A stretch of DNA of 64,000 bases. It comes from a virus. Where the stretch lies: the IMG/VR virus record IMGVR_UViG_3300022602_002157, positions 1-64,000 of that record; one strand, 5' to 3'. Numbering within the stretch: position 1 is the first letter of the stretch; the number at the start of each line of letters is the position of its first letter. Positions 975 through 41,641 of this stretch are shown piece by piece. The notes beneath the pieces are model-generated. The model was not told where the DNA came from and did not search any database. It saw nothing but the letters and a program-made list of their open reading frames with translations. The position numbers and the translations under genes are program-made.

Positions 975-3900
975 ATGGCACTAGTATCCCCAGGCGTAGA
1001 AGTAGATATCATTGATCAAAGTCAATATCTACCAGGCGCAACAAACTCAACCCCTTTCGTGCTTATCGCTACAGCGGCGAATAAAGCAGATCCAACTGGT
1101 ACTGGTGTCGCACCAGGTACTACAGCCGCTAATGCTGGACAACTTTACTTGATTACAAGTCAACGTGATCTTGTTCAAACATACGGTACTCCATTCTTCT
1201 ATACAACATCAAATGGTGTTCCTATCCAAGGATATGAATTAAACGAATATGGTCTATTGACTGCATATTCAGCACTTGGTGTAACAAACAGTTGCTATGT
1301 ATTAAGAGCAGACATTGACTTAGCAAGTTTAGTAGGTCAAACAGGTCGCCCAACTGGTAACCCTGTTGATGGAGCATATTGGTTAAATACAACTACAACA
1401 ACTTGGGGTATTAATGCATTCAATGCGGCAACAGGTTCTTTTGAAGCAATTAGTCCTATCGTTATTGATAATGCTTCACAACTATCAGGTGGTGTTCCGT
1501 TAAACAGCATTGGTTCAATTGGTCAATATGCTGTTAACTCAATTCCAAATTACGAAGATCCTAATCAATCAAGCGCACAAACATATTTCTATAAAGCACC
1601 AAATAATACTTGGGTAGCAGTAGGATCACAAGCATGGTTGAACGCATGGCCAACAATTCAAGGTACAAACTCAGGCCCAACCTTAACAGCAGGTAATACA
1701 TTAACACTTAATATTAGTGGTGGTGGTTCAGTAACGGTTACCGTAGAGGCTTCACCAAATAACGTAGTTTCTGTATTAGCAAGCCAAATCAATGCATTAG
1801 GTTTAGGTTATTTGACAGCAAATGTTGTTGGTGGTAAATTAAACATTTATTCATCACAAATTGGTGGAAGCACTAGCGTAAATCCTAAGTACTTGACAAT
1901 TTCAGGTTCAGGAACTATCCTAAATGATTTAGGTATTGATCCAGGCAATTACTATCAACCACAATTCATTTATGGAACATCTGCTCAACAGCCATTATGG
2001 CAAGCAAGTCAGCAATTCCCTGCTCCATCAGGTTCAGTATGGATTAAGGTAGGTTCTGCTGGTAGTGGTTTCAATCCATCAATTAGTGAATGGAGTTCAG
2101 CAACACTAAGTTGGACATCAAAAACAGCCAACTTAGCAACAAGTGACTGGGCTGTTAATGCATCATTGGATTCAACAGGTGGTTCATTAATTCCAGCAGG
2201 CACTGTTTATTCACAATATAACTTCAATATTGCACCAGCAGCCACTTACCCAGCACTTCAAGGTCCAATCTATTATTGGGAACGTGTTGCAACTGGTCCA
2301 ACTATTGCAACAGGTACTGTAACAGACTTTAACTGGACAAGTGGTACTACATATCTTTATGTACAAGCAAGTATCCCTGGTACAAGTTCATTGAGTTCAT
2401 ACTATACTGTTAATATTCCAAGTACATGTACTGCAACTCAATTTGTAACAGCATGGTCAGCGGCAGGCATTCCTTTCACAAGTGCAAGCGTTGCAACTTC
2501 AGGTGCTATCGTTCTTGAGCATACAGAAGGTGGTGCAATTGTATTGAATGACGTTAACTTGTCAACAGGCGTAAGCAGTGGTGTGTTAGCGGCAGCAGGT
2601 TTCGTAGCAGGAACTACTCCTTTCGTTAAGACAGGTCCGTTCGTAACAACTAACTTGAGTCAATACAATACAGGTATTGCTTTCACACCAACTCAGTTAT
2701 CAACTTCAGGTGTTGGTACTGGATTACAAATCAATGTAATTAACAACAACACAATTTATAATGTTTCACCATCAACTTTTGCATCAGCAGGTTCAGGCTA
2801 TGCAGTAGGTGACACAGTAACATTCAGTGGTGCTGTATTAGGTGGCAATCACCCAGCAAATGACTTAGTTGTTAAAGTAGTATCAGTAAGTGGCGGTGGC
2901 GGTGTAACAGGATTAACATATGTTTCTGGTACAGGCGCTCAAACTTACAATCTACAAATTTCAAACTGGGTAGAGTTTAGCATGACACCAAGTTTTGGTG
3001 CTCCAGTAGCGGCTCCAGCAGATGCTACAAATTGGTTCTTCTCAGTAGTTGACCAAGTTGATATCATGGTTAATACAACAACAGGTTGGAAGGGTTATGG
3101 TAATAGTAACTATGACTTGAATGGTTTCCCAACAACTGGTTCAAATATGACTGATCCAAATGGTCCTATCTGTTCTGCACTTCCACCAACAACACAAAGT
3201 GATGGCGTAACTGCTCTTGCTTATGGTGATCTTTGGGTTAACACATTAGACCTAGTAAATTATCCATTAATCAGTCGTTGGCAATCAGTCAACAGTGTTG
3301 ATCAATGGGTATTAATCGATAATACAGACCATGTAAATTCACACGGTATTGTGTTTGCTGATGCACGTTGGGCAACTAACGGTGATACAAGTCCAGTTGA
3401 TGATCCGATCCCAACAATTGCAAGTTTGTTAATGAGCAACTACTTAGACTTAGATGCTCCAGATGCTAACTTATATCCAGTAGGAACATTGTTGTTCAAC
3501 ACAAGACGTTCAGGTTATAACGTTAAACAGTATCGTTCAAACTATTTCAATAGTGACAGATTCCCTGATCAAGACTTGCCAACATATCATGATACATGGT
3601 TATCAGTATCAGGTGCTGATGCAGGAACAGGCGTACCTTACATGGGTGCAGCCGCACAACGTAACATGGTTGTTACTGCTATGAGAGCAACAATTTCAAC
3701 TAACCAAGCGATCAGAGATGAAGATAACTTCTTCAACTTAATGGCAGCACCAAACTATTGCGAATTGCAACCAGATATGGTAACATTGAATGATGATCGC
3801 GGTGACACAGCATTCATCGTTGGTGATACTCCAATGACATTACCTGCTAATGGTACAGCAATTGCGGCATGGGCAAACAATGCGGCAGGTGCTACATCAA

Positions 3901-4598
3901 CAAGCGTAAAAGGTTGCGTAACACGTAACACATATTTGGGTCTATTCTATCCAAGTGGTATTACTGACGACTTGCAAGGTAACTTAGTAGCAGTTCCCCC
4001 ATCATACATGATGTTGAGAACATTCTTAAGAAATGACCAAATTGCTTATCCTTGGTTAGCGGCAGCAGGTACACGCCGTGGTATCATTGATAACGCAACT
4101 AACATTGGTTATATTGATGCTGTAACAGGTAACTTTGTAACAAGCAAGACAAGTCAAGGTATCAGAGATGTATTGTATACACACAACATCAACCCACTAG
4201 TATTCTTTACTGGTAATGGATTGTTAAGTTTCGGTAACATCTCAAGTTATGCATCACAATCTGCATTAGATAGAATTAACGTTGCAAGACTTATCTGCTA
4301 TCTAAGATACAACTTGGCAGTTGCCGCAAGACCGTTCATCTTTGAACCTAATGATGCATTGACAAGAAGTCAGATTTCAGGCGTTGTTCAAACATTGCTT
4401 GTTGACTTAGTAGCGAAACGTGGTATCTATGACTACTTGGTAGTCTGCGATAACAGTAACAATACTCCTGCAACAATTGATGCTAACGAACTTTGGGTAG
4501 ACGTTGCAATCGAACCTGTGAAGGCAGTCGAGTTCATCTATATCCCAGTACGTATCTTGGCAACAGGTACATTAGGTGGCCAAGGTGGCAGTAAGTAA
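975..4598 (+). CDS. Tail sheath protein (gp18-like) with large inserted domains
   Basis: N-terminal LVSPGVEV; C-terminal PWLAAAGTRRG, INPLVFF, LDRINVARL, FEPND, IEPVKAVEFIYIP sheath motifs; AAGGA RBS; TAAATA at 917. Confidence 0.95.
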   Translation: MALVSPGVEVDIIDQSQYLPGATNSTPFVLIATAANKADPTGTGVAPGTTAANAGQLYLITSQRDLVQTYGTPFFYTTSNGVPIQGYELNEYGLLTAYSALGVTNSCYVLRADIDLASLVGQTGRPTGNPVDGAYWLNTTTTTWGINAFNAATGSFEAISPIVIDNASQLSGGVPLNSIGSIGQYAVNSIPNYEDPNQSSAQTYFYKAPNNTWVAVGSQAWLNAWPTIQGTNSGPTLTAGNTLTLNISGGGSVTVTVEASPNNVVSVLASQINALGLGYLTANVVGGKLNIYSSQIGGSTSVNPKYLTISGSGTILNDLGIDPGNYYQPQFIYGTSAQQPLWQASQQFPAPSGSVWIKVGSAGSGFNPSISEWSSATLSWTSKTANLATSDWAVNASLDSTGGSLIPAGTVYSQYNFNIAPAATYPALQGPIYYWERVATGPTIATGTVTDFNWTSGTTYLYVQASIPGTSSLSSYYTVNIPSTCTATQFVTAWSAAGIPFTSASVATSGAIVLEHTEGGAIVLNDVNLSTGVSSGVLAAAGFVAGTTPFVKTGPFVTTNLSQYNTGIAFTPTQLSTSGVGTGLQINVINNNTIYNVSPSTFASAGSGYAVGDTVTFSGAVLGGNHPANDLVVKVVSVSGGGGVTGLTYVSGTGAQTYNLQISNWVEFSMTPSFGAPVAAPADATNWFFSVVDQVDIMVNTTTGWKGYGNSNYDLNGFPTTGSNMTDPNGPICSALPPTTQSDGVTALAYGDLWVNTLDLVNYPLISRWQSVNSVDQWVLIDNTDHVNSHGIVFADARWATNGDTSPVDDPIPTIASLLMSNYLDLDAPDANLYPVGTLLFNTRRSGYNVKQYRSNYFNSDRFPDQDLPTYHDTWLSVSGADAGTGVPYMGAAAQRNMVVTAMRATISTNQAIRDEDNFFNLMAAPNYCELQPDMVTLNDDRGDTAFIVGDTPMTLPANGTAIAAWANNAAGATSTSVKGCVTRNTYLGLFYPSGITDDLQGNLVAVPPSYMMLRTFLRNDQIAYPWLAAAGTRRGIIDNATNIGYIDAVTGNFVTSKTSQGIRDVLYTHNINPLVFFTGNGLLSFGNISSYASQSALDRINVARLICYLRYNLAVAARPFIFEPNDALTRSQISGVVQTLLVDLVAKRGIYDYLVVCDNSNNTPATIDANELWVDVAIEPVKAVEFIYIPVRILATGTLGGQGGSK

Positions 4599-8799: not shown

Positions 8800-11700
8800 A
8801 TGAATTTTAAAGACATGTTAGAAAAAATAAGCCAGTTATCAGAGGCTACTGAAAAAACTAAAACTGGTGTTAAGCACACTGGTAAGTATGGTAAAGAGTA
8901 TGATACTGATGAAGAAGGCGAAGAAAAGAAAGAGCCAGTCGCAAAGCGTGGTCGTGGTCGTCCTGCAAAAGACAGCGAAGAAACAAAATTTGATACCAGT
9001 GCTTTAAGTAAAGCAATGGGTGGCAAAAAGCCAAAGAAAGAAGTAGGTACAGTTTCTAAAAAGCATACATTGAAAGATTGGATTGAAAATGTTGAGAAAA
9101 ATCTTCTTAACGAAGCACCAACTCCAGTTCCTGTAATGCAACAAGGTAGCAATAAACCAGCAGGCGCAGGCATTGTTACTATCAACGATCCTAACTTAAA
9201 AAACACATTAGGCCCTACACTTGATAACTTGGCACAACAGAAAAAGATTAGTGTAGTTACAACAGGTCAAACTACACCTGCTACAACTGGTGGTTCAACT
9301 CCTAGCGTTGCACAATCAAATCAAAATCAACAAGGAACACAAGCAATGGCTGAAGATAATTTAGATGAAAAAATCGAAGGCGGTGTTAAACTAAACCCTG
9401 CAAAGAAGGGTATGTTCAAGGGTAAAACCAAAGCAGAATTAACATCACAGTATAACAAGTTAAAGGCAAGCGGCCCGCACAAGAAGGGTTCACCTGCTTT
9501 TACTAAGATGAAAGAATTAGCATTTGCTATTCGTGCTAAGAGTGGTTGGGGTAAAGTAGATGAAGCAGATATTGCTTCAACTCAAGGTATTGACACAGAA
9601 GGCGCAAACTTAGGCGCCGGCCGTAATCCAAATGCTTTTGAAAGTAAAATGAAAACAACACATAGAACACGTATAGACGAAGGTATGATGGATAAGATCA
9701 AATCAATTTTACCTAAAGCAATGAAATTATTGCCTGTACAAGAAATTGCAACTAAAGTAAAACAAATTACAGGTGGTGATTTTACTCCTAGCAGAGAAAA
9801 TGCATTGAAAGTAGCACAAGCATTTGGCTTTGATAAAATGGGTAAACAAGCGCCAGCACAAGCCGCAGTCAACGAAGGTTTAGCAGGCAACTGGCAAGGT
9901 AAATTGCTTCAACTATTACACGTAGTAGGTATTGGCGCAGGTGCCGCACAAGCAATTGGTGGTTCTGCACTAACTGGTATGGCAGGTTTTGGCGGCGGCG
10001 GTGAACTTTTAATCATGGTTGGAACAATATTGTTAATGTTGACTGACACATTCTGGGGTAATAATCGTGGTCAAATAGGTGCTATGGGTAAACCTACAAA
10101 TGAAGGCAAAAAAGCAAAGCCAGATTATATTGACTTAGACAAAGATGGCGACAAAAAAGAATCAATGAAAAAAGCTGCCGCTGATAAAAAGAAAAAAGCA
10201 GTTAAAGAAAGTGCTAATCACAAAGTCATGGCAGCAAGACTAGAAGGTAAAGCACATGGATTGAAAGGTCATCCACATTGTGGTAAGAACTATGATGACA
10301 TGGATGAGTGCATGGCATATCACACTGGCTACAAAGAAGGTCTAGATGAATGCTATGGCATGAGCAGTGCAGGTATGATGGAAACAGAAGGCACAATGCC
10401 AGCCGCAACAACTCCAGGTATGGCAAGTCAAGCAATGGCAGGTGGTATGACTGAAGACCACGATTCAAGCGAAGCCGCTAAGAGTGCAGTTATCAATCGT
10501 ATCATTAGACAACATCCAAACTTGTTAGCAAAACATGGCCCAGAAAAAGTCATGGCAGCAGTTGAAAATTGCTGTGGTCATTTAAGTAATTTAGAAGAAA
10601 TTGGTTCAAGTGATGTAAGTGCTTGGGTAAACAATGTTATTCGTGAATTAAAGCACCACGATGTCGAAGAAGGCAATGCATTTACAGGTGCGCTTGCTAA
10701 GACACCAAAAGGTGGTAAGTTCACAGTAGGTGGAAAAACATTTACAGATAACTCAAACTATGATAGCAAGATTGACGAATATGCATTTGAATCATGGGAC
10801 AAAGAGTTAAGCAACCTACTAAACGAAAGTACAGAAACAATTAACGAAGGCTTAACAGTTTCAGTAAGTAAAGGTCAACAAGGATCACCTGATTCAGTAA
10901 GCATCAATGCAAGTGACAGCGAAGCAGATCAAGTACTTGCTTTCATCAAGCAAGCAGGTTTAGGTTTGTTTGGCGATGAGCATGGCGAACATTTACCAGC
11001 AACTGTTCCCGGTGAACACGCTGTTGAATTAGAACCAGCAATGCCAAAGATTGACGTAGTTGATGACCATGAAGGTATGATGGCATTAATGAGAAAAATG
11101 TCAGGTGGCGATGATCATGGACATTCACATGCTGGTTCAGAAGACTATGCTGACGAAGAAAGTACTGATGAAGAAGCATGTAACGAATGTGGCATGGCTT
11201 ATGAATCATGCGGTTGCGAAAAAGAAATGGTCGATGAAGTTGAATCAGAAGATCAAATGATGTACAAAGTTGCAGAAGATAATCCACCAGACAATGGTTC
11301 AGCAAACTCAATGAATGCAACTAAGGGTAACAATGCGGCTAATACAGCATTAGCAATTGCTGATAAAGATGGTATGGCTGAAAGTGAAGTTTCAGAAGGT
11401 TGGGATCCAGTAAAAGAAGTAAAACAATCTGCTATAGAATATATGAAAAGTGCTGGAATACGCAACGTACATGATTTAGATGCAGAAGCTATTCAATATA
11501 TTGGTGATGAAAATCAAATCAATTACGAAGAAGTTTGCAAGATTCTTGGTTGTAAATTACCAGAAGAATTAGGTCCAGTTGATGCGGATGATGAAATTGA
11601 AGAAGGTGAAATTTGCCCAACATGTCATAAAGATCCATGCGAGTGTGATCACGAAGAAGAAGCAGTAGAAGAATCTTTTGCTTTTGAAAGTCTTTATAAG

Positions 11701-12111
11701 AAATTAGCAATGATTGAAGCCAAAGAATCTACAAGAAAGAAAGATAATAAGGCTGAAAAGGCAGGCAAAAAAGTTACTAAAGATATCGAATATGACGAAG
11801 GTCATAAAGGTAAAGATGATAAGAAGGCTGAAAAAGCTGGCAAAAAAGTCAAAAAAGATATCGAATATGATGACAAGAAAGACAAGAAGTTAGACGAATG
11901 GGCTAATGATGCAGGTCCTGGTAAGTCAGTATCAGATACTACTTTTGAACAAGATATTGACTTTATGACTAAAGTTATTGCTGGTGGATTGAATAAACAA
12001 AAATCTACTGGTCAAACAACAATTCCAGTTGTTGCAAGTCAATTGAAGCGCCAAGTTAGCGAATCAACTGATTCAATCAGCGATTGGAAGAAATTAGCAG
12101 GTCTTAAATAA
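8800..12111 (+). CDS. Large acidic/basic mosaic protein, probable internal head (core) polyprotein
   Basis: Many hydrophobic-x-E motifs (LSEA, LNEA, LDEK, VDEA, VNEG, VKES, VEEG, INEG, LDEW); AT-hook-like KRGRGRP; DLDKDGD; C-terminal KKLAGLK. Confidence 0.6.
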   Translation: MNFKDMLEKISQLSEATEKTKTGVKHTGKYGKEYDTDEEGEEKKEPVAKRGRGRPAKDSEETKFDTSALSKAMGGKKPKKEVGTVSKKHTLKDWIENVEKNLLNEAPTPVPVMQQGSNKPAGAGIVTINDPNLKNTLGPTLDNLAQQKKISVVTTGQTTPATTGGSTPSVAQSNQNQQGTQAMAEDNLDEKIEGGVKLNPAKKGMFKGKTKAELTSQYNKLKASGPHKKGSPAFTKMKELAFAIRAKSGWGKVDEADIASTQGIDTEGANLGAGRNPNAFESKMKTTHRTRIDEGMMDKIKSILPKAMKLLPVQEIATKVKQITGGDFTPSRENALKVAQAFGFDKMGKQAPAQAAVNEGLAGNWQGKLLQLLHVVGIGAGAAQAIGGSALTGMAGFGGGGELLIMVGTILLMLTDTFWGNNRGQIGAMGKPTNEGKKAKPDYIDLDKDGDKKESMKKAAADKKKKAVKESANHKVMAARLEGKAHGLKGHPHCGKNYDDMDECMAYHTGYKEGLDECYGMSSAGMMETEGTMPAATTPGMASQAMAGGMTEDHDSSEAAKSAVINRIIRQHPNLLAKHGPEKVMAAVENCCGHLSNLEEIGSSDVSAWVNNVIRELKHHDVEEGNAFTGALAKTPKGGKFTVGGKTFTDNSNYDSKIDEYAFESWDKELSNLLNESTETINEGLTVSVSKGQQGSPDSVSINASDSEADQVLAFIKQAGLGLFGDEHGEHLPATVPGEHAVELEPAMPKIDVVDDHEGMMALMRKMSGGDDHGHSHAGSEDYADEESTDEEACNECGMAYESCGCEKEMVDEVESEDQMMYKVAEDNPPDNGSANSMNATKGNNAANTALAIADKDGMAESEVSEGWDPVKEVKQSAIEYMKSAGIRNVHDLDAEAIQYIGDENQINYEEVCKILGCKLPEELGPVDADDEIEEGEICPTCHKDPCECDHEEEAVEESFAFESLYKKLAMIEAKESTRKKDNKAEKAGKKVTKDIEYDEGHKGKDDKKAEKAGKKVKKDIEYDDKKDKKLDEWANDAGPGKSVSDTTFEQDIDFMTKVIAGGLNKQKSTGQTTIPVVASQLKRQVSESTDSISDWKKLAGLK
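11740..11880 (+). repeat. Intragenic tandem duplication KAEKAGKKVxKDIEYD (x2)
   Basis: Two near-identical copies at DNA and protein level. Confidence 0.8.
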
Positions 12112-28226: not shown

Positions 28227-29027
28227 ATGGATCATTATAGTACACTAGGTGTGTCAAAAACTGCCTCGCAAGAGGAAATAAAAAAGGCATATCGCAAACA
28301 AGCGATGCAACACCATCCTGATCGCACAGGTGGTGATGATACCAAATTCAAAGAAATCCAAACAGCATACGATACATTAAGTGACCCGCAAAAGCGTCAA
28401 CAGTATGACAATCCTAGACCACAAATGCAGGGATTTCCTGGTGGGTTTGGTTTTAATGTAAATGGATTTGATTTAAACGATTTATTTGGTCAAGCGTTTG
28501 GGCATCAACATCCATTCAATCAGCAACGAAATCAAACACCAACTTATCGTACTAGACTAAACGTATCATTGATGGATGTTTATAAAGAAAATGAACATGT
28601 ACTACAATTAAACACACCAACTGGTTCTAACGTAGTAAACGTTAAAATACCACGTGGAACACAATCTGGCGACCATGTACGTTATGACAAAATTATTCCT
28701 GGCGCACAATTAATTGTAGAATTCATAGTACTAAGTGATTTAAAGTATGATCGTAAAGGTGATGACCTTTATGCAAACATGCCCGTTTCAGTACTTGATT
28801 TGATTGTGGGTAACAAAATTCAATTTGACACGATTAGTGGTAAAACATTAGATGTTACTATTAGACCCAAAACTCAACCATATATGCAATTACGCATACC
28901 AGGTGAAGGTATGCCCTCACGAAATGGTGGGTATGGAGACCAAATACTATTGCTAAAACCCTATATACCTGATATAATAGACAATGAAATAGTAGAAATT
29001 ATTACTCGCCATCAGCAAACTAAATAA
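28227..29027 (+). CDS. DnaJ/CbpA-type co-chaperone (no Zn finger)
   Basis: J domain with HPD, G/F-rich linker, C-terminal [11 protein letters not shown]. Confidence 0.92.
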
Positions 29028-29045: not shown

Positions 29046-31328
29046 TTGCAACAATCTCCTGAAATTCAGAACATCATTGAACGTGCTATCGAAGCCGCTA
29101 AGGATAGAAAACACGCATATTGTACGATTGAGCATTTGTTACTTTCATTAGTAACACACCCTCCCTTTAAGAAATGCTTAAGTACATTTGGTGTTGATAT
29201 GGATTTGATGATTTCAGAAATCGAGTCATATCTTAATGGACTCCACGCTATTGAATTAAAGCAGTCTGGTACTGCACCAAAGAAAACCAATTCAATTGAA
29301 CGTGTGATCAATCGTAGTGTGACACAGGTATTGTTTACTGGTCGTCAAAAGGTTACCACTATCGACCTTTACATGAGCATTGCCGCTGAAAACAATAGCC
29401 ATGCACATTACTTTTTACTAAAGTACGGTGTTACACGCAACGAATTTTTGCAACATTGGCAAAAGACTTATAAGGGCGGTGACTATACAGGTTCATTGAC
29501 TGATAATCAAGCAGACGAAATCCTTGACGAATACACAATCAATCTTACACAACTTGCACGTGAAGACAAACTAGAACCTGTTATTGGTCGTAGCAAGGAA
29601 ATTGATGATATCATTAACGTACTTGCAAAACGATTTAAGAGCAATGTATTAATGGTAGGCGACCCCGGTGTAGGTAAGACTGCTATTACTGAGGGTATTG
29701 CACGTGCAATCGTCAACGGTGAAGTTCCTGAATTCTTAAATGGTCATGAACTATACTCATTAGAGATTGGTAGTTTGCTTGCTGGTAGTCGCTATCGTGG
29801 TGACTTTGAAGAAAAGGTCAAGCATGTACTTGAGGCACTGAACCACAAAAAGAAAGCAATTCTATTCATTGACGAAGCCCACACTATGCAAGGTGCAGGT
29901 GGAACAAATAACGGTAGCGTTGACTTTAGTAATATGATTAAGCCAGCCATTACAAAGGGCACACTTAAGATTATTGCGTCAACGACATGGGAAGAATTCT
30001 ACGAGAGTTTTGAAAAGGATCGTGCTTTAATGCGTAGATTCTATAAAATTAGTGTTGATGAACCTTCTCAAGAATCCACAGTTCGTATTCTAAGTGGATT
30101 GGCTGCACGATTGAACGACTTCCATAGTGTTAATATCACTGATGAAGCCATTAACGCCGCAGTTGAAAGTGCAACACGATATATTCATGACCGTAAGAAT
30201 CCTGACAAATCAATCGACCTATTGGATGCGGCATGTGCAAAGCAACGTGTACTTGAAAACAAAGATGCAATTATCACTAAGGAATTAATCCATGAGCAAG
30301 TGGAAAAGTATACAGGCGTACCTGCTGATAAATTGTCAGGAGATAATTTTGATCGCATTAACAATCTTGAACTAAACGTCAAGAACAAGTTATATGGTCA
30401 GGATGAAACTGTAGAGAAAGTACTTGAACGTGTTTATGTTAGTTTCGCTGGTATTGGCAACGAAACTAAACCAACCGCAAGTTTCTTGTTCTTGGGCCCA
30501 ACAGGCACGGGTAAAACAGAATTGGCAAAACTACTGTCTAAGAATTTAGATATGCCTCTTCTCAAGTACGATATGAGTGAGTACGGAGAGAAGCACAGCG
30601 TAAGTAGTTTGATCGGACCTCCCCCTGGCTATGTAGGCTTTGGTGATTCACAAGTGCAAGGTGGACGCCTAATTAGTGACTTGAGCAAGAATCCACACAG
30701 TATTCTACTGTTTGACGAAGTTGAAAAGGCACACCCAGATATCTTTAACATCTTTTTGCAGATGTTAGATGAAGGTCGTGTTACTGGTAGTAATGGTAAA
30801 GAAGTATCAATGAAAAATACTATCATTATCTTGACTAGTAATTTGGGTAGTGCTGACAGCGAACGCAATAACATTGGTTTCGGTGCGCAAGAAAAGACAG
30901 GTGAAGATGATCGTGCATTAAAGCAATTCTTTAAGCCTGAATTTAGAAATCGTCTTGACATGGTATGCAAGTTCAACAAACTTGACTTGCTATCAATCAA
31001 AAAGATTGTTATTAAGTTCACTGATGATTTGAAGAAGTCATTGCTTGAAAAGCATAACATTACTCTTAACTTGAGTGAACCTGCTGTAGAGTATTTGGCT
31101 GACAAGGGTTATGATAGCAAGATGGGTGCTAGACCTTTAGCACGTAAAATTGATGAACTCATTCGTGTTCCTCTTTCAAAGAAGATTTTGTTTGAGAAAA
31201 TTAAGGATACGAATATCATGGCAAATGTTGAAAACGATGAGATTGTTTTCAACATTACAACCAAGCAATCAGTAAGGGTTGGAGAAGATGGAATCATTGA
31301 AGTTATCGCCGAAGCAGGTAGACCGTAA
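29046..31328 (+). CDS. clpA: ClpA/ClpB-family Hsp100 ATPase
   Basis: Clp N domain (EHLLLSL), two AAA modules (GDPGVGKT, GPTGTGKT), DEVEKAHP, IGF loop, GARPL; TTG start after AAGGA. Confidence 0.9.
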   Translation: MQQSPEIQNIIERAIEAAKDRKHAYCTIEHLLLSLVTHPPFKKCLSTFGVDMDLMISEIESYLNGLHAIELKQSGTAPKKTNSIERVINRSVTQVLFTGRQKVTTIDLYMSIAAENNSHAHYFLLKYGVTRNEFLQHWQKTYKGGDYTGSLTDNQADEILDEYTINLTQLAREDKLEPVIGRSKEIDDIINVLAKRFKSNVLMVGDPGVGKTAITEGIARAIVNGEVPEFLNGHELYSLEIGSLLAGSRYRGDFEEKVKHVLEALNHKKKAILFIDEAHTMQGAGGTNNGSVDFSNMIKPAITKGTLKIIASTTWEEFYESFEKDRALMRRFYKISVDEPSQESTVRILSGLAARLNDFHSVNITDEAINAAVESATRYIHDRKNPDKSIDLLDAACAKQRVLENKDAIITKELIHEQVEKYTGVPADKLSGDNFDRINNLELNVKNKLYGQDETVEKVLERVYVSFAGIGNETKPTASFLFLGPTGTGKTELAKLLSKNLDMPLLKYDMSEYGEKHSVSSLIGPPPGYVGFGDSQVQGGRLISDLSKNPHSILLFDEVEKAHPDIFNIFLQMLDEGRVTGSNGKEVSMKNTIIILTSNLGSADSERNNIGFGAQEKTGEDDRALKQFFKPEFRNRLDMVCKFNKLDLLSIKKIVIKFTDDLKKSLLEKHNITLNLSEPAVEYLADKGYDSKMGARPLARKIDELIRVPLSKKILFEKIKDTNIMANVENDEIVFNITTKQSVRVGEDGIIEVIAEAGRP

Positions 31329-32561: not shown

Positions 32562-34739
32562 ATGAAACAAATAGTTGTAATGCCCGGTGGCTTTCACCCC
32601 TTTCATGCAGGGCATGCCAGCCTATATCAATCAGCATTAGAAGCATTTCCCGATGCTGATGTATACGTAGCCGCAACTAATGATCAAAAGAAAAGACCTT
32701 TCCCCTTTGCAATTAAAGAAAAACTAGCAAAGGTAGCAGGCGTTGCTCCTGGCCATTTTGTTCAAGTTAAAAGTCCATTCAAAGCAGAAGAGATAACAAA
32801 AAACTACGATCCTAATGAAGATGTATTAATCTTTGTGCGTAGCGAAAAAGATAAAACAGAACAACCTAAACCAGGTGGTACAAAGAAAGATGGCAGTCCA
32901 GCTTACTTCCAACCATATACCGGCAAGGACCTACAACCATTCAGCAAACATGCATACATTGCATATTTACCAACTATAGAATTTGGCCCCGGCATTACAA
33001 GTGCTAGTGAGATTCGTGAATTATGGCCTAGACTAAATGACAAACGCAAAACAGCAATGGTAATGAGTTTGTATCCGGCTGCTCAGAAGAATCCTAAACT
33101 TGCGGCTAACATTGTTGGTATGCTAGATCAGGTCATGGGTGGACAAGTTAATGAAGTATTAAATACTAAACCTAATAAAACCAACAAAGCTACATGGTCA
33201 GAACAAACTGAAGACTTGGTTCAATTAAACTTTGTGGCAAGTAATGGTCTTCCGTATAATCTATCTATCACTGCTCTTTATATGTCACCAGATGAAATAC
33301 AAGATTCTGTACCTGAAGAAATACCAAATGAAGTGGCAGAACGTGGTAGATTTGTAGAATTTTTCCAAGAATCTAAACCAGGCGCTGGATACGGTAAACA
33401 AGGAATTGAGGGTACTGGTGCAGCCGCTGAAGTACTTGCTATAGTATACAATGGTCTTAACCAGTACGTTAAAAAATATAAACCAACTTTCTTAATGTTT
33501 CAAGCAGCAGAGCCTAGTCGTAGACGTTTGTACAGTGCATTAGTTAAAAAAATTCTACAAACTATGCCTAACTGGAAATACACTGAAAATGATGGTATAT
33601 TCTTTGTATATGATACTAGATATATTAAACAAGGTATGAAAGAAGGATTTGGTATCCCAATGCCAGGTACATACGAACAAGAACAATTATCAGAATACAA
33701 AACTAAAGTACTAGATAAGCCTAAAACAACTAATGTTTATTACAAGCCTAGACATGGTAACAAAACATATTTGATTGGTAAAGATGTTCCCGGAGAACAT
33801 ATTGACAAATTTATTAATTTAGTAAAACACAAATATGCTGACTTACGTAATGCAGGTAAAGATGAAATCTTTTGGAACGTAGAAGTAAAAGAAGAAGTTT
33901 CATTAGATGCTATTACTGATGCCGCAGCCTATATTCCAAATGCTATCAATGATTATCTACAAAAGGCAATAGCAGTTTATGGTCAGGAAGCAAAAGAAAG
34001 TGCGCAAATGGTTAAATTATTACCATTGATGTACGCAGGCAAAGCAACTCCTGATCAATTAAAATTCATTAAAGATCAATTTGCAGACATTGGCAACATA
34101 TTAGGAAAACAATTAAAAACATTAGGTACTGGTAGTGTAACTGGTCCTATTGCCGATGCTATATCAGATTCTCCAGTTGCACAAAAAATAATTGACAAAA
34201 CATTAGATAGTTTAGCAGATATTCCAGAAGAAAAAGGTCTATCAAAAGCAGAAAATTATTTTAAAAATAAATTTGGATTTAGTTTAGTTGGTAAAGTTGC
34301 CAATCTTTTAAAATTTGAAACTAGTAGTGATGTACAATACAAACAACAACAAAAAGCAGATCAGGCAGAAATTAATAAACAACAAGCAACACCTCAATCT
34401 CAAGCAGTGAATAAGCAAGTCAATACTATGCGTAGACAACAACATTATGCTTATGAAGATGTGGCTAAGGGTAAGATGAAACCCATGCATGTTACAGGCA
34501 AAGAAAAGCCCGGTGCCGTCGAGACACTAGAAAAGGCATTAGTAAAAGCCAAAGATCGTGGTATCAAATTAGACTATGACAAAATAGATAAAATGATGCA
34601 ATTGATTTGTAAAGAACACAACTTAACAGGTGACAAACTACACAATGATTTTGTAAAGAAACATCATATGATCCCAGATAATTGGATCAAAAAGCATTCT
34701 GATGTTACCGAATCAGTGGATTATTTAGAAGAAAAATAA
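32562..34739 (+). CDS. HxGH nucleotidyltransferase domain fused to several x-x-E-delimited modules
   Basis: MPGGFHPFHAGH, ITSASEIR; then VNE/KQGMKEG/LSE/VKEE/VTES boundaries. Confidence 0.7.
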   Translation: MKQIVVMPGGFHPFHAGHASLYQSALEAFPDADVYVAATNDQKKRPFPFAIKEKLAKVAGVAPGHFVQVKSPFKAEEITKNYDPNEDVLIFVRSEKDKTEQPKPGGTKKDGSPAYFQPYTGKDLQPFSKHAYIAYLPTIEFGPGITSASEIRELWPRLNDKRKTAMVMSLYPAAQKNPKLAANIVGMLDQVMGGQVNEVLNTKPNKTNKATWSEQTEDLVQLNFVASNGLPYNLSITALYMSPDEIQDSVPEEIPNEVAERGRFVEFFQESKPGAGYGKQGIEGTGAAAEVLAIVYNGLNQYVKKYKPTFLMFQAAEPSRRRLYSALVKKILQTMPNWKYTENDGIFFVYDTRYIKQGMKEGFGIPMPGTYEQEQLSEYKTKVLDKPKTTNVYYKPRHGNKTYLIGKDVPGEHIDKFINLVKHKYADLRNAGKDEIFWNVEVKEEVSLDAITDAAAYIPNAINDYLQKAIAVYGQEAKESAQMVKLLPLMYAGKATPDQLKFIKDQFADIGNILGKQLKTLGTGSVTGPIADAISDSPVAQKIIDKTLDSLADIPEEKGLSKAENYFKNKFGFSLVGKVANLLKFETSSDVQYKQQQKADQAEINKQQATPQSQAVNKQVNTMRRQQHYAYEDVAKGKMKPMHVTGKEKPGAVETLEKALVKAKDRGIKLDYDKIDKMMQLICKEHNLTGDKLHNDFVKKHHMIPDNWIKKHSDVTESVDYLEEK

Positions 34740-35748: not shown

Positions 35749-35774
35749 AAAAGCCCCGTAACTGGGGCTTTTTT
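35749..35774 (+). terminator. Rho-independent terminator
   Basis: AAAAGCCCC-GTAACT-GGGGCTTTTTT. Confidence 0.85.
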
Positions 35775-35830
35775 ATTATGTTCCAAATTAATTTTATTGA
35801 TAAATATAGTATATTATTGGAATTCTCACT

Positions 35831-36589
35831 ATGAAAATCAACGACATCTTTGAATCAACAACAGCAGGATCAATTAGCACCGTGGCAATGCCAATTGGTG
35901 AAGTAAAAAAGCGTGAATCAACTAAAGTTGATGGGCTTGAACCTGTAGCAAAAGCAATCAAGGCCAAGAAAAAAGGCCCTTACATGAATAGTCTTATCGA
36001 AGGTAAGATGAAAGAATTAGATTACGATCTAAAGAACATGAAGGATGCTGAATTTAAAAAGAAATATAAAATGTCTAAGGCTGAAATGAATAAAAGCCTA
36101 ACTGAAGAAGAAGTTATTGAAAGTGATATCATTCTTGTTCCAGGCCAAGGTCGTTCACAAAAAACAGGATTTATTAAACATGATCCTGATCGTGCAGAAC
36201 ACGAAGGTGAAACATTAAAGAATAGTCTACACACTATTGCACGTTCGGCAATGAAATTAGATAAACACTTACAGACTAAGGATGAATTCCCTGAATGGGT
36301 AAGTGAAAAAATTGGCGCTGTTAAAGCCATGATGACTAGTGTAATGCAATATTTAGTGAGCAAGGGTGAAATGCAAGGTGATGGTGACCTAGAAGAAGTA
36401 CGAGCACCAAGCACAGGTGGTACAATTGCAGGTGGCGTTGCTTTTGAAGGTAAAAAAGTTGACCGTTTTGTTAAACATGTTGAAAAGTCAGAAGAAAAAG
36501 CTGGCAAGTCAAAGAAAGATGCTGAGAGCATTGCATGGGCTACTGCTAACAAACGTGGCATGTTAGATAACAAGAATAAGAAGAAATAA
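35831..36589 (+). CDS. Probable internal head protein
   Basis: MKINDIFES N-terminus; LIEG/VIES/LEEV/AFEG sites; FPEWVSEKI; AWATANK. Confidence 0.6.
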   Translation: MKINDIFESTTAGSISTVAMPIGEVKKRESTKVDGLEPVAKAIKAKKKGPYMNSLIEGKMKELDYDLKNMKDAEFKKKYKMSKAEMNKSLTEEEVIESDIILVPGQGRSQKTGFIKHDPDRAEHEGETLKNSLHTIARSAMKLDKHLQTKDEFPEWVSEKIGAVKAMMTSVMQYLVSKGEMQGDGDLEEVRAPSTGGTIAGGVAFEGKKVDRFVKHVEKSEEKAGKSKKDAESIAWATANKRGMLDNKNKKK

Positions 36590-36591
36590 TC

Positions 36592-39500
36592 ATGAGTTCA
36601 ATATTAAAAGGTATAACCATTAATGAAAGTCTGCAAGATGACTTTATTGAGTTAATGAAGTCTAAAGGTTACAATGTTAAGCCGCGTGGCAGTATTGAAC
36701 AACAAAAAGCAGAGCGTGACGCAATGTTGGCACAACGTGCTAAGGATCAGGCCAATGCGCCGGCGCCGGCTGCTCCAAGTCCAGAAGAAATTGCCAATGC
36801 TAAAGAAAAACTAGCACAACTAGAACGTGTGTTTGATAAGAATTATCAATACAGTGATGATCATAGTGTGTGGAGTAAAAACCACGATATCGCACAACAA
36901 ATCGGTAGTCTTAAAAAATTAATTGCACGTGGTGAGCAAGGTGTGGCGGAAGGCTCCGAGAACTTCAACGGCATAGACATTGACATGGACCTAGAAGGTG
37001 ACGAAATCATGGTGCGAGCCATGGCAAATGGTCGTGAACTGGGCCATGTGATTTTTGTGGAAGACGGAGAATATTTACTACCGCAGGATTTAGAAGTAGA
37101 CGAACGCTATCAAGGTCAAGGCATTGCCGCTACCATGTACGACTATGTAAAAAGCAAAGGTTATAAAATACGCCGCAGTTGCCGACAAACAGATGCAGGT
37201 GCTGGATTTTGGGCAAAACACCGTCCTAAACAAAATGTCTGGGAACAAGGTGTGGCGGAAGGCTCGGGCATGAATGTAGTCAAATCAGTCAAGGTAGGAA
37301 ACTTCAGACACGATTTGGTCAATACTGGAATGGGTTGGCAGGTTCGTATCTATAACGGTGATGAACTTTATGATACTGGGTTGAGCAAGAACTCTGAAGA
37401 AAAAGGTTTAGCCGCATTGGATAACTCAGTGGCATACACTAAAAAGCAACTAAACATTAAAGAGCAAGGTGTAGCGGAAAGTGAAAATAATAGTATTCCA
37501 CCCATTGGGATTAATGTGCGAAGCGACGGTGATATTGACTATGCTGATCTAATTGTTGATGGTAAAAAGAAATATGAATCCAGAAACACTGATAGCCTCA
37601 ACCCATATGTTGGGAAAACAGTTGGCATTATTAGAACCGGTAGTGGACCCGCAGTTGCAATTGGTCAAGCAACAATAGGCGAACCCATAGTAGCAGATGA
37701 AGAAAAGTTTAACAAACTTAGAAAAAAGCATCTAGTTCCAAAAGGTAGTAGGTTTGATATAGATAGCAATGGTACAAAATACTTGTATCCAATCATTGAT
37801 CCTGTACGCTGGGACGATGAAAAGTTGGTAAAGCAAAGGGGCATAGTTGCTAGAAAGATCGAAGAGCAAGGAGTGGCGGAAGGCGTTCCTCAACCTGGTA
37901 AATCATCTGGCAAACCTATATCTTGGATTGATCCTACCAAAGTTGTAACAAAATATCTAACGCTAGACGAGATATTCGATTCAGTATCAGGCATACCATA
38001 CTATAACAATGTTGTTGATGATCGTGACAAAAAAGACTTTACTTGGGGAGTAACTAAAAGAGTAATTCAATATGCAAAAGAATTAGTCACACGACCTGAT
38101 TCCTACAAAAACTGGCCTCCTATAATAGTCTTAGATGGCAAACTACAGGACGGGGCACATCGTATATCCACTATATACTTGATGCAACAAAGAGTTCAGC
38201 CAAACGACCCAATTTGGAAAAATGCTAAACTAAAAGTAGAATTTGGATCAAAAAATAATGTAAAGCAAGATATGGCGGAAGGCTCTTTGAATGAGTTCTC
38301 GATGGGCGATGACGGAGAAGATCCAACCGATAACTATCCTTGTTACGATTGCGGTAGCACTATATTCTTGCATCATACTAAACTATGTGATTTAGCAGAA
38401 GATAATGCCATACGAGATTTGCCAGCAAAACCAGGATCACAACATTGGACTGGTCAAATTCCAAAAGGATTACATCCTATTCCGGGATTACAGGAAGGAC
38501 AAGGTGTGGCGGAAGAAAAATGCCCACATTGCGGTGGTGAGTTAGTCAGTGAAGATATGATTAACGAAAAGAAAGATGCCTGCTACTACAAAGTCAAGAG
38601 CCGTTATAAAGTATGGCCCAGTGCATATGCAAGTGGTGCATTAGTTAAGTGCCGCAAAGCTGGTGCTAGTAACTGGGGCAATGGTGGAAAGAAAAATGAA
38701 AGTTCTATACTAGAAGGTATCGAGCAAGTTGATGAAAACTTACACCAATGGTTCAAAGAAAAGTGGGTACGATTTGGCCCCGATGGAAAGATTCGCGGTG
38801 ACTGTGCTAGAGGTAGTGATAGTGAAGGTAAGCCAAAATGTTTGCCACAAAGTAAAGCACATGCATTAGGTAAAAAAGGTCGTGCAAGTGCCGCTGCCAG
38901 AAAACGCAGAGAGGATCCTAATCCAGAACGTCATGGCCCAGCACACAATGTTGCCACTAAAAAGAAATCAAATGAAGCCGCTAATCCAGCACAACAGGCT
39001 GCTATTGCTATCAATATGAAAAAGCATCATCAAAAGCCAAAGAATGAGGCTGTTGGTGATGTCGATTTAGAATCAGCATATAGACGAGCCTTAGAAATTA
39101 CAAAACAAATTAAGTATGATGACACTGCAACACAAATCATTGTAGAAATTCAAATGCTTGCAGAAAAAACAGGCATCGATATGAAACAACTTAATTGGGC
39201 TATTGATGATGTGCGTGAAGCAAAAAATCAATTAGAAAGCGCCGTATATGGTCTTGATGAAGTATTCAAAGAGGCTATGGAACAACAGCAATATCGTGAT
39301 GAAGAAGGTATTGACGAAGATACAGCATATGGCGGTGGTATGGGTCAAGGTCACACAGGACAATCATATCGTAAGTTTACTCCAAAGAGTGCAGGTACAT
39401 TTAATGAAATGGATAGTTTCGATAACGGAACACACTATACACCTAAAATGGCAGGCACGTTTAAAGAAAGCAAATTAAAAGAAGAGCCAGATACATCAGG

Positions 39501-39750
39501 CCCAATTGGAACACAACCGGGTGGTTGGAGAACATATAGAGCAAAAAGTGCCGGCACAAAAATGAAAAAAGAAAGTTCTATTATGAAAGGTCTTAAAGAG
39601 ACTGATAGTACAGGAACTAGTGTAGGTTCAGCAGGTGCAGGTGGTGGTGCAATGGTAGGTGGCCCAACAACATACGAACAAGAGTTTGATCCTTTCAAGC
39701 GTAAGGGCGCAAGACGTATTACAGCAATGACATATGAAGGCAAAAAATAA
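36592..39750 (+). CDS. Modular polyprotein (GNAT, ASCH, ParB-like, Zn-binding and unknown modules separated by QGVAE repeats)
   Basis: VDERYQGQGIA (GNAT motif A); LIVDGKKKYESR (ASCH); PPIIVLDGKLQDGAHR (ParB/Srx-like); CYDC, CPHC. Confidence 0.75.
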   Translation: MSSILKGITINESLQDDFIELMKSKGYNVKPRGSIEQQKAERDAMLAQRAKDQANAPAPAAPSPEEIANAKEKLAQLERVFDKNYQYSDDHSVWSKNHDIAQQIGSLKKLIARGEQGVAEGSENFNGIDIDMDLEGDEIMVRAMANGRELGHVIFVEDGEYLLPQDLEVDERYQGQGIAATMYDYVKSKGYKIRRSCRQTDAGAGFWAKHRPKQNVWEQGVAEGSGMNVVKSVKVGNFRHDLVNTGMGWQVRIYNGDELYDTGLSKNSEEKGLAALDNSVAYTKKQLNIKEQGVAESENNSIPPIGINVRSDGDIDYADLIVDGKKKYESRNTDSLNPYVGKTVGIIRTGSGPAVAIGQATIGEPIVADEEKFNKLRKKHLVPKGSRFDIDSNGTKYLYPIIDPVRWDDEKLVKQRGIVARKIEEQGVAEGVPQPGKSSGKPISWIDPTKVVTKYLTLDEIFDSVSGIPYYNNVVDDRDKKDFTWGVTKRVIQYAKELVTRPDSYKNWPPIIVLDGKLQDGAHRISTIYLMQQRVQPNDPIWKNAKLKVEFGSKNNVKQDMAEGSLNEFSMGDDGEDPTDNYPCYDCGSTIFLHHTKLCDLAEDNAIRDLPAKPGSQHWTGQIPKGLHPIPGLQEGQGVAEEKCPHCGGELVSEDMINEKKDACYYKVKSRYKVWPSAYASGALVKCRKAGASNWGNGGKKNESSILEGIEQVDENLHQWFKEKWVRFGPDGKIRGDCARGSDSEGKPKCLPQSKAHALGKKGRASAAARKRREDPNPERHGPAHNVATKKKSNEAANPAQQAAIAINMKKHHQKPKNEAVGDVDLESAYRRALEITKQIKYDDTATQIIVEIQMLAEKTGIDMKQLNWAIDDVREAKNQLESAVYGLDEVFKEAMEQQQYRDEEGIDEDTAYGGGMGQGHTGQSYRKFTPKSAGTFNEMDSFDNGTHYTPKMAGTFKESKLKEEPDTSGPIGTQPGGWRTYRAKSAGTKMKKESSIMKGLKETDSTGTSVGSAGAGGGAMVGGPTTYEQEFDPFKRKGARRITAMTYEGKK
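36937..38514 (+). repeat. Six dispersed in-frame direct repeats, consensus CAAGGTGTGGCGGAAGG (QGVAEG)
   Basis: Copies start at 36937, 37246, 37465, 37867, 38266, 38500; spacings 309, 219, 402, 399, 234 nt, all multiples of 3. Confidence 0.9.
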
Positions 39751-40190
39751 TGTTAGCAGATCAATTAAAAGTTTTATTAGGTAGTACATTTGTAGTTTAT
39801 ACAAAAACACATGGATTTCACTGGAATATTGAAGGCCCTGATTTCCCACAGTATCATAAGTTTTTGAAAAAAATGTATGAAGAAACTTATGAAACAATAG
39901 ATGTTATTGCTGAATACATTAGAACATTAGATAGTTATAGCCCAGGTAGTTTAGGTCGTATGCTTGAACTAACTATCATTGAAGAACAATATAAAATTCC
40001 ACGTGCTGAGTTAATGTTAGCAGAACTATTAGCAGACTGTGAAAAAATGATTGCGTTAGTTGTAGAAATTTTTAATGTTGCTACGCAAGAAAATCAACAA
40101 GGCATTGCAAATTACATGGCAGAGTTACAAGACCTTTATTCACAGAAGGCTTGGATGTTAAAAGCAACACTTAAGAAACAACGTGCATAA
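39750..40190 (+). CDS. dps: Dps-family ferritin-like protein
   Basis: HGFHWNIEGPDFPQYH, DVIAEYIR, KAWML. Confidence 0.9.
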   Translation: MLADQLKVLLGSTFVVYTKTHGFHWNIEGPDFPQYHKFLKKMYEETYETIDVIAEYIRTLDSYSPGSLGRMLELTIIEEQYKIPRAELMLAELLADCEKMIALVVEIFNVATQENQQGIANYMAELQDLYSQKAWMLKATLKKQRA

Positions 40191-41302: not shown

Positions 41303-41641
41303 ATGAAAATTAATGAACTTTTTGAAAGCAAGCACGATGAATGGGATGAGGACGATGTTCCTAGTGTTCCTAGTGATCCTGATTCAGACAAAATTCCTCA
41401 TATTCTAATGCAAATGAAAAAAGCAATAGATGTACAGGGCAATTATCCTATCACATTTAAAGATGGCACTAAGACAAAAATTCCTCTTAGTGATATCGTT
41501 AAGTTTGTAGAAAAATACGTAACCCTTAAACCCATGGACCGCGAAAAAATGCAAGACGTAGCAGGTCAAAGCAAAGAAAACTTTGACATGATTCTAAAAC
41601 ATTTCCGCGGCGAAACAGCACCAAAGAGTATTTACCAATGA
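41303..41641 (+). CDS. Probable internal head protein
   Basis: MKINELFES N-terminus; TAAATA at 41274. Confidence 0.55.
   Translation: MKINELFESKHDEWDEDDVPSVPSDPDSDKIPHILMQMKKAIDVQGNYPITFKDGTKTKIPLSDIVKFVEKYVTLKPMDREKMQDVAGQSKENFDMILKHFRGETAPKSIYQ

Follow-up and report, generated by a model that had tools for sequence, protein, structure and literature searches.

In bacteriophage T4, the internal proteins called IPI, IPII and IPIII and the protein Alt carry a leader that is removed by gp21 (Mullaney & Black 1996, cited in PMC8442874; PMC5694885), and each of them has a separate gene, one leader and one cut. Here we describe a phage gene, P0001, that encodes a chain of unrelated small modules joined by copies of the linker QGVAEG. 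It lies in a stretch of viral DNA of 64,000 nucleotides (nt), positions 1 to 64,000 of the IMG/VR record IMGVR_UViG_3300022602_002157, which we call the window. P0001 and its relatives, known here from sequence alone, differ from the T4 arrangement in holding up to ~10 cargo units in one frame, with internal linkers that look like cut sites. They resemble it in their short amphipathic leaders ending in hydrophobic-x-Glu, in their small, non-structural cargo, in late-promoter-like elements, and in a Peptidase_S77 homologue encoded by several of the genomes that bear the motif. Across hundreds of phages the linker DNA is fixed at synonymous sites, and modules are exchanged, gained, lost and reordered at the linker.

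Short coding motifs between variable segments that related phages swap in frame, with the motifs as crossover points, have been described in T-even tail-fibre adhesins, namely the His boxes of gp37 and the glycine-rich motifs of gp38 (Tetart et al. 1998, via PMC3157838). As summarized in that source, the adhesin motifs belong to the structure of a single folded protein, and the segments exchanged there vary a single function; QGVAEG, unlike them, appears as a disordered linker between unrelated domains, with synonymous sites fixed across very divergent phages. The PeSL cassettes of T4-type phages offer a second parallel, in that short repeated DNA flanks exchangeable non-essential genes and no dedicated recombinase is involved (Arbiol et al. 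2010, PMC2839356; PMC4122927). PeSLs mediate insertion, deletion and replacement and can yield mini-circles (PMC2839356; PMC4122927). They are intergenic units of promoter and terminator, whereas the QGVAEG element is coding, in frame, ~20 nt long and a putative protease site.

Polyvalent proteins, known from phages and conjugative elements (Iyer et al. 2017, PMC5512222), likewise combine many unrelated small effector-type domains, including ParB-like ones, in one polypeptide. They are presumed to be delivered with the DNA, and processing into units by their own zincin-like metallopeptidase (MPTase) has been proposed; the survey describes no conserved linker (PMC5512222). P0001, unlike them, has no detectable MPTase and has a uniform linker ending in Glu. 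Finally, the modules recall integron cassettes (attC/IntI) as interchangeable units bounded by a repeated site in a single orientation, but here an integrase, an attC-like folded site and separately translated cassettes are all missing, the units being modules in one open frame.

Linkers and modules of P0001

The linker DNA CAAGGTGTGGCGGAAGG, searched with at most two mismatches, has six + strand copies in the window, at 36937, 37246, 37465, 37867, 38266 and 38500, with 0, 0, 2, 1, 2 and 1 mismatches in this order. The chance expectation for the pattern is 0.09, and six copies were reached in 0 of 100 shuffles. All six copies lie in the single frame of the open reading frame (ORF) 36592-39750, at successive distances of 103, 73, 134, 133 and 78 amino acids (aa). 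The preliminary description of this DNA had reported six in-frame copies joining five unrelated modules of 73-134 aa, and we reproduced the positions, the frame and the lengths; a search of the whole 77-kb record returned these six copies and no linker motif elsewhere. The features of P0001 are as follows (the slash marks the putative cut position).

36592-39750, + strand: polyprotein ORF P0001, 1052 aa
36592-36627, + strand: leader MSSILKGITINE/, ending in hydrophobic-x-E
36628-36951, + strand: module 0, 108 aa, no family; its end is linker copy 1
36937-36953, + strand: linker copy 1, exact 17-mer, EQGVAE/G
36952-37260, + strand: module 1, small GNAT acetyltransferase, 103 aa
37246-37262, + strand: linker copy 2, exact 17-mer, EQGVAE/G
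37261-37479, + strand: module 2, 73 aa, no family
37465-37481, + strand: linker copy 3, with GTA and AAAG, 2 mismatches, EQGVAE/S
37480-37881, + strand: module 3, ASCH-like, 134 aa
37867-37883, + strand: linker copy 4, with GGA, 1 mismatch, EQGVAE/G
37882-38280, + strand: module 4, possible ParB/Srx-like fold, invariant peptide DGAHRIS, 133 aa
38266-38282, + strand: linker copy 5, degenerate (GAT ATG), 2 mismatches, KQDMAE/G
38281-38514, + strand: module 5, 78 aa, acidic, CxxC...H...C, no family
38500-38516, + strand: linker copy 6, 1 mismatch, GQGVAE/E
38515-38976, + strand: Zn-ribbon and DUF5872-like basic module, 154 aa (residues 642-795)
38689-38721, + strand: internal junction KKNE/SSILEGI in the Zn-ribbon/DUF5872-like module
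38689-38700, + strand: junction GGKKNE/
38965-38976, + strand: second junction type, KKKSNE/, where many DNA and protein homology blocks end
38977-39048, + strand: 24-aa spacer AANPAQQAAIAI..KPKNE/, with the KPKNE/ junction at 39034-39048
39049-39747, + strand: C-terminal part, 233 aa, no family
39574-39600, + strand: internal leader-like peptide KE/SSIMKGLKE/ in the C-terminal part

The predicted products of P0001 range from 1 to 20 kDa, with isoelectric points of 4.5-10. Module 3 scores below the Pfam cut-off by itself, and its homologues carry PF04266. For module 4, whose top structure matches are Srx, Noc, PadC, SbnI, KorB and Osa, weak but consistent matches (Foldseek E at least 0.14, VIA Z 4-5.2) and the DGAHR motif suggest a ParB/Srx-like fold. 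The AlphaFold model of this module has a pLDDT (predicted local distance difference test) of 84, with the linker residues at both ends as its low-confidence parts; the model of the Zn-ribbon/DUF5872-like module reaches a pLDDT of only 54. Searches of PDB sequences with modules 3 and 4 gave no match; for modules 2 and 5, hits in the ESM Atlas were limited to small viral clusters without names, below 0.9. Pfam searches of P0001, its eight pieces and nine other long arrays found no peptidase family, although several modules have no assignable family and a divergent peptidase may have escaped detection; in the nine other arrays, only GNAT, DUF5710 and LysM were found.

The DUF5872-like module is the most widespread module of the family and matches 3583 cluster representatives. 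In the best 150 of these 3583 clusters (50% identity), it lies anywhere between residues 2 and 1029 of proteins 201-1311 aa long, and 99 of the 150 contain G[VIM]AE, with 241 sites against 5.9 expected. MS[SN]ILKG[IL]..E is the usual N-terminus of polyproteins with this module; the leader of P0001, MSSILKGITINE, ends in I-N-E. Leader-like peptides also recur within the P0001 chain, as NE/SSILEGIEQVDE and KE/SSIMKGLKE/, and the AANPAQQAAIAI spacer recurs immediately after leaders in other polyproteins. Among cultured phages, megablast gave no match for the polyprotein gene, and tblastn matches were confined to the DUF5872-like part, in cyanophages. The P-SSM2 homologue of the module (PSSM2_123, L285:2692-3507) is located between gp15 and gp16, and as a conserved stand-alone gene the module occupies this place in T4-like cyanophages. 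Within the window, ORF 32562-34739 (725 aa) combines a cytidylyltransferase-like domain at its N-terminal end with a DUF6934-like stretch; proteins that share its N-terminus, MKQIVVMPGG..., carry the DUF5872-like module elsewhere, and this ORF itself is without it.

The linker is fixed at the DNA level

The codons of the linker are unusual for the window, which has a GC content of 37.5%. In the 43 other + strand ORFs, Ala is encoded by GCG in 6.5%, Val by GTG in 7.8% and Gly by GGC in 17% of cases; in the linker copies, GCG-GAA is present in 6/6 and GTG in 4/6, and six of the eight GCG codons of the ORF fall inside the motif. The preliminary description had pointed to these rare codons, and the counts bear it out (GCG in 6/6 copies against 6.5% of Ala codons in the other ORFs).

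To follow the linker in relatives, we defined motif loci as the IMG/VR phage contigs containing the exact 17-mer, of which there are at least 120, with 30-52% GC and lengths of up to 343 kb; the locus statistics given below rest on the matches listed. Many of these loci hold arrays of 2-11 copies on one strand, and the 252 copies with at most one mismatch lie, without exception, in an open frame that reads QGVAE. At 113 non-exact, peptide-level sites in motif ORFs, GTG encodes 82 of 100 Val and GCG 94 of 113 Ala residues, compared with backgrounds of 24% and 11%, respectively, in the same ORFs. The fixation extends beyond the rare codons and beyond the 17-mer. Ahead of CAA, a wobble G predominates (AAG, GAG, CAG), against codon usage, and 125 of 154 exact copies use GGC for the Gly that follows the linker Glu; with the fixed preceding G and the following GGC, the conserved tract is ~21 nt long. 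Its form is G-CAA-GGT-GTG-GCG-GAA-GGC, in which CAA, GGT and GAA, which are common codons, are fixed too. The preference does not depend on the GC content of the locus and is kept in contigs with at least 43% GC, where GTG makes up 30% of Val codons.

Conservation at the DNA level, and not only of the peptide, was a central claim of the preliminary description. In homologous ORF pairs with 40-50% synonymous codon identity outside the motif, the motif codons are 93% identical, which agrees with this claim, and we saw no relatives in which the synonymous codons of the motif vary freely. Two controls are free of ascertainment by motif DNA. The first consists of loci found through the ParB-like module: there DGAHRIS occurs in 10 DNA versions among 13 copies, with Ala encoded by GCA, GCT or GCC, whereas QGVAEG has GCG in 14/14, GTG in 13/14 and GGC in 13/14 cases. 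The second consists of arrays found through the favoured-codon version of the site, GTW-GCW, in which most other sites have GCG or GTG (GCG at 17/30). Among the matches listed for the GTW-GCW scan, 104/119 are isolated single sites. SSILKG, the other repeated peptide of the motif genes, varies freely at silent sites.

A constraint on the peptide alone would keep QGVAEG as a protease site or a flexible linker, the shared DNA reflecting recent descent by duplication and hitch-hiking. Drift in some arrays (copies 3 and 5 of the window, and the GTW-GCW arrays with their 17/30 GCG) fits this explanation, as does the recently imported look of modules 1 and 2. It does not account for motif codons that stay 93% identical where other synonymous sites are near saturation, for the free drift of the equally invariant DGAHRIS in the same loci and of the SSILKG leader, or for a preceding wobble G and a following GGC fixed contrary to codon usage, and we regard it as unlikely.

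Slightly less probable still is another role of the nucleic acid, such as a translational pause at the rare codons during which each domain could fold or be cut co-translationally, a site that a phage protein acting on RNA or DNA binds or cleaves, or a Chi-like signal of the host. In its favour, no Val codon is rarer than GTG and no Ala codon rarer than GCG in this AT-rich genome, and every copy is on the coding strand. Against it, contigs with at least 43% GC keep the same codons, and the common CAA, GGT and GAA are likewise fixed. Conserved RNA structure is absent, as are a complementary sequence in the record and a start codon at any fixed distance downstream, and such a role would leave unexplained why breakpoints fall at the motif, as described below. 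In 596 gigabases of bacterial and archaeal genomes, the 17-mer has at least 120 loci; among those listed, 114 are single-copy and 102 are in genomes with ~60% GC or more. These matches are chance-like, form no arrays and give no clue to the host.

Module exchange at the linker

The closest DNA relative of each matched module of P0001 is in a different contig, and the homology spans from motif to motif:

36933-37265: module 1, 99% identity to L138 and L139
37242-37486: module 2, 97.6% identity to L030
37463-37870: module 3, 96% identity to L131
37861-38283: module 4, 92% identity to L267 and L268
from 38501: sequence after copy 6, 98% identity to L144

Module 5 has no DNA-level relative among the loci compared. 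The blastn blocks start between -6 and +1 of one motif and end between +16 and +21 of the next, and the matching loci extend both ways past each match without similarity to the window. In the matching proteins, the module occupies exactly one interval between linkers, among different neighbours. For example, module 3 is followed by a module 1 homologue in L131, module 1 is followed by the DUF5872-like module in L136, and sub-parts of the DUF5872-like module are permuted in L142, L143 and L145.

The ends of homology blocks (at least 90% identity) were located in 160 motif ORFs. In this set, 56% of the informative ends fall no more than 6 aa from a motif (6.6% if placed at random), and most of the remaining ends are at other Glu-ending junctions, e.g. 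KKKSNE/ and GGKKNE/. The preliminary description had predicted that gain, loss and reordering of modules would break at the motif, and the distribution of the ends agrees with it; neither an identical module order nor breakpoints unrelated to the motif were found in the relatives.

Metagenome data give a similar picture. In four lake metagenomes (X1, X3, X4 and X7), the Logan contigs break at every motif copy, with loose ends a few bases away. The summed contig depth in run X1 is 334 for module 1, 530 for module 2, 214 for a variant of module 4 and 61 for the flanking genes, a 3.5-9-fold excess over the flanks, indicating that the same modules are also present in other, more abundant genomes of the sample. 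The GC content at third codon positions (GC3) is 0.41 in module 1 and 0.425 in module 2, compared with 0.245 ± 0.085 in 300-nt chunks of other genes (95th percentile 0.38). Module 1 had already been noted as richer in C/G-ending codons than its surroundings, which its position above that percentile substantiates. From the 5-9-fold flank depth and the raised GC3, modules 1 and 2 (36938-37472) appear to be recent imports shared with more abundant lake phages.

Recombination machinery

The preliminary description had found no recombinase in the window. We searched for tyrosine (PF00589) and serine (PF00239) recombinases, and they were absent from all five motif-bearing genomes that are 97-100% complete and also from the 77-kb record to which the window belongs; control genomes gave matches in the same searches. 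A RecA/UvsX-type protein was found in 5/5 of the near-complete genomes. The 17-mer has no dyad symmetry, and folding of 81-nt segments around the six copies gave z values of -1.0 to +1.45 relative to shuffles, with no common structure. No endonuclease or recombinase domain was found in the nine long arrays. With no dedicated recombinase, a RecA/UvsX-type protein present and neither dyad nor fold in the linker, general homologous recombination at a short patch of identity would be the simplest mechanism, simpler than one that relies on a dedicated enzyme.

These results bear directly on the integron-like array that had been proposed, in which a dedicated site-specific recombinase would excise modules as circles and reinsert them at any copy. 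The motif copies are direct repeats in a single orientation that bound discrete cassettes, the modules occur in many contexts, and T4-type phages make mini-circles by exchange between short PeSL repeats (PMC2839356), so the proposal has a basis. Nevertheless, the recombinase families are missing from the five genomes and from the record itself, the nine long arrays lack an endonuclease or recombinase domain, and the motif has no dyad or consistent fold and never occurs outside the QGVAE coding frame. We consider this mechanism very improbable, and the label integron-like is not supported. The wider proposal that one element is both a shuffling site and a cleavage site stands in part: the breakpoints at the motif and its coincidence with the ends of leaders speak for it, whereas a dedicated recombinase finds no support.

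Leaders and the putative cut site

The T4 capsid-targeting sequence, MKTYQEFIAE, is removed from internal proteins by gp21 (PMC8442874), and the prohead proteases of T4, phiKZ and SPN3US all cleave C-terminal to Glu in short x-x-E motifs (PMC5694885). Several modules of P0001 have free-standing homologues that begin with comparable leaders. For module 4, homologues of ~141 aa begin MIKLKDLILELLE/NVPQKG, and others begin MRAYEFILEADDL/SVPQPG or MKNLIKKILSE/DNTPQPG; the polyprotein reads EQGVAE/GVPQPG at the alignment position where these leaders end. Short homologues of the GNAT module begin MRA[x]EF[IV]xE/. The ASCH-like module exists in three forms, namely bare (M/IGINV...), leader-bearing and within polyproteins, and its leaders include MRTSEFIVE/ as well as MKSFKEFISE/ and MKTFLDFISE/, the last two of the general form MK[ST]F.[ED][FY]I[ST]E/. 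In free-standing homologues of modules 1, 3 and 4, the leaders end in E exactly at the QGVAE/ position of the polyprotein. Many motif ORFs also start with leaders, and in some the leader is joined directly to the linker, as in L079 (MRATEFIIE-GVAE-G) and L100 (MRINEILVE-QGVAE-G). The likeness of the leaders to the T4 capsid-targeting sequence is at the level of pattern only (~10 aa, with a hydrophobic-x-Glu end).

The suggestion that V-A-E fits a maturation site gains from this comparison, as the motif coincides with the end of a T4-like leader in the free-standing homologues, and the reading of the linker as a putative protease site and of the modules as putative capsid cargo is well supported by it. 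A candidate enzyme is also available: Peptidase_S77 is encoded by 4/10 large motif-bearing records (G002, G003, G006 and G010), and by three of the five records that are at least 97% complete.

Leader-like starts are also found at + strand ORFs elsewhere in the window, with MKSLKQYIVE at 8159, MNFKDMLE at 8800, MKINDIFE at 35831, MKPSEIVDE at 40190, MKINELFE at 41303 and MQAKEFITE at ~54380; ORF 8800-12111 (1103 aa) contains one GVAE-like site in addition. Leader-tagged cargo genes seem to form a whole class in this phage.

Alternatively, P0001 may be a polyvalent protein that stays uncleaved and works as a single molecule in the cell or virion, or is processed otherwise, by a host enzyme or by the nearby Clp-type machinery, with the linker as a favoured flexible spacer. 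Polyvalent phage proteins with 2-15 domains are known (PMC5512222), the virion RNA polymerase (vRNAP) of phage N4 enters the virion without processing, genes for DnaJ and a ClpA/B-like AAA+ protein are located 5-8 kb upstream of the polyprotein gene, and two complete motif genomes have no S77 match. On the other hand, the free-standing forms carry T4-like, putatively cleavable leaders that end at the same residue, every junction type ends in Glu, and no zincin-like autoprotease domain was detected in P0001. We rate this alternative as improbable, to about the same degree as a role of the linker in translation or protein binding.

A working model for P0001

The explanation that we favour, with a confidence slightly better than even, is that P0001 is a late-expressed cargo polyprotein cut after Glu, whose linker DNA acts as an in-frame crossover patch. 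Behind its short leader MSSILKGITINE/, the protein would be a chain of unrelated small proteins, each folding independently, with disordered linkers between them that have hydrophobic-x-Glu ends (QGVAE/ at six sites, together with the KKNE/ and KSNE/ sites). The chain would be targeted to the prohead core and then cut after each Glu by a prohead protease of the T4 gp21 type; a single gene would in this way fill the capsid with ~10 individual proteins (1-20 kDa) that are later ejected into the host. The 17-21 nt patch of identity would serve as an in-frame crossover point for recombination of the UvsX/RecA type, either between co-infecting relatives or between copies, and every product would be in frame and cleavable. 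Modules with intact flanking patches would keep spreading, which would keep the DNA uniform.

In its most extended form, which we hold more tentatively and place somewhat below an even chance, QGVAEG would be dual-coded. The peptide would be a capsid cut site and the DNA a crossover site that works in frame and needs no recombinase, possibly by way of PeSL-like mini-circles, allowing a community-wide exchange of cassettes for injected proteins among jumbo T4-like phages of lakes.

Several observations weigh against the favoured explanation. With its MSSILKG... start, the leader of P0001 resembles that of T4 less closely than the MRAxEFIxE leaders do. In two motif-bearing genomes with 99-100% completeness, G001 and G009, no Peptidase_S77 was found by profile or with a relative's protease as query; none was found in the 77-kb, 22%-complete record that holds the window, and the window has no head genes. 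Cleavage and packaging are what we infer from comparison, and the same is true of the cause of the DNA fixation. Most loci were chosen by the exact 17-mer, which inflates some of the conservation figures, a bias that the controls with ParB-like loci and GTW-GCW arrays address. At 17-21 nt, the patch is short by the standards of RecA-type recombination. Finally, no recombination intermediates were seen: the motif-to-motif joints in Logan contigs rest on the motif itself, their shorter side of 20-24 nt being the motif, and they give no evidence of deletions or circles.

Genomic setting

The IMG/VR record of the window is 77 kb long, with a CheckV completeness of 22%, and the window sequence was detected in lake and freshwater metagenomes from 18 studies. 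The genes of the window include those for a tail sheath (975-4598), a tail tube, several very large proteins without family, DnaJ, a ClpA/B-like AAA+ protein, a DNA-binding protein, a nuclease and a DNA polymerase of family B. With its counterparts in Phosso, Atu_ph07 and RaK2, the polymerase shares 42-48% identity, which points to a jumbo myovirus related to Rak2 and Atu_ph07, of the T4 superfamily in a wide sense. The phage-encoded DnaJ (28227-29027) immediately precedes the two-ring ClpA/ClpB-like AAA+ protein (29046-31328).

Three features precede the polyprotein gene:

35753-35775, + strand: terminator-like hairpin GCCCC-GTAACT-GGGGC with a T run, read from the sequence, closing the previous transcription unit
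35800-35806, + strand: ATAAATA, situated 25 nt upstream of the gene that starts at 35831 and resembling the late promoter of T4, TATAAATA
35831-36589, + strand: upstream gene, 252 aa, with the capsid-targeting-like N-terminus MKINDIFE

The stop of gene 35831-36589 is 2 nt before the polyprotein start, and motif-bearing ORFs in L127, L136, L023 and L038 have leaders similar to the N-terminal region that this gene encodes. ATAAATA has 15 + strand copies in the window, and seven of them (4634, 8132, 12184, 35800, 41261, 41273 and 49484) are located 8-45 nt upstream of ORF starts, against 0.4 expected; the tail genes at 4660 and 12210 are among the ORFs preceded by it. The full octamer TATAAATA is not enriched in the window (6 observed, 7.9 expected). 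The ATAAATA at 35800 probably drives gene 35831-36589 and the polyprotein gene together.

Implications

We found no publication that describes the QGVAEG linker. If the favoured explanation is true, the uncultured jumbo phages include a large group that packs small injected proteins as kits, the members of which are probably host-takeover and anti-defence factors, most of them without a known family. Each kit would be a single gene, the parts of which phages could exchange with one another while the frame and the processing signal stay intact. A simple sequence rule, a leader or QGVAE/G on each side, would then serve to find thousands of candidate ejected proteins in metagenomes, and the arrangement might be copied in a single construct that loads T4-type capsids with several foreign proteins. 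The linker would also be a natural case of one short element selected both as peptide and as DNA, and the old question of whether linkers are kept for promoting modular exchange would become directly testable.

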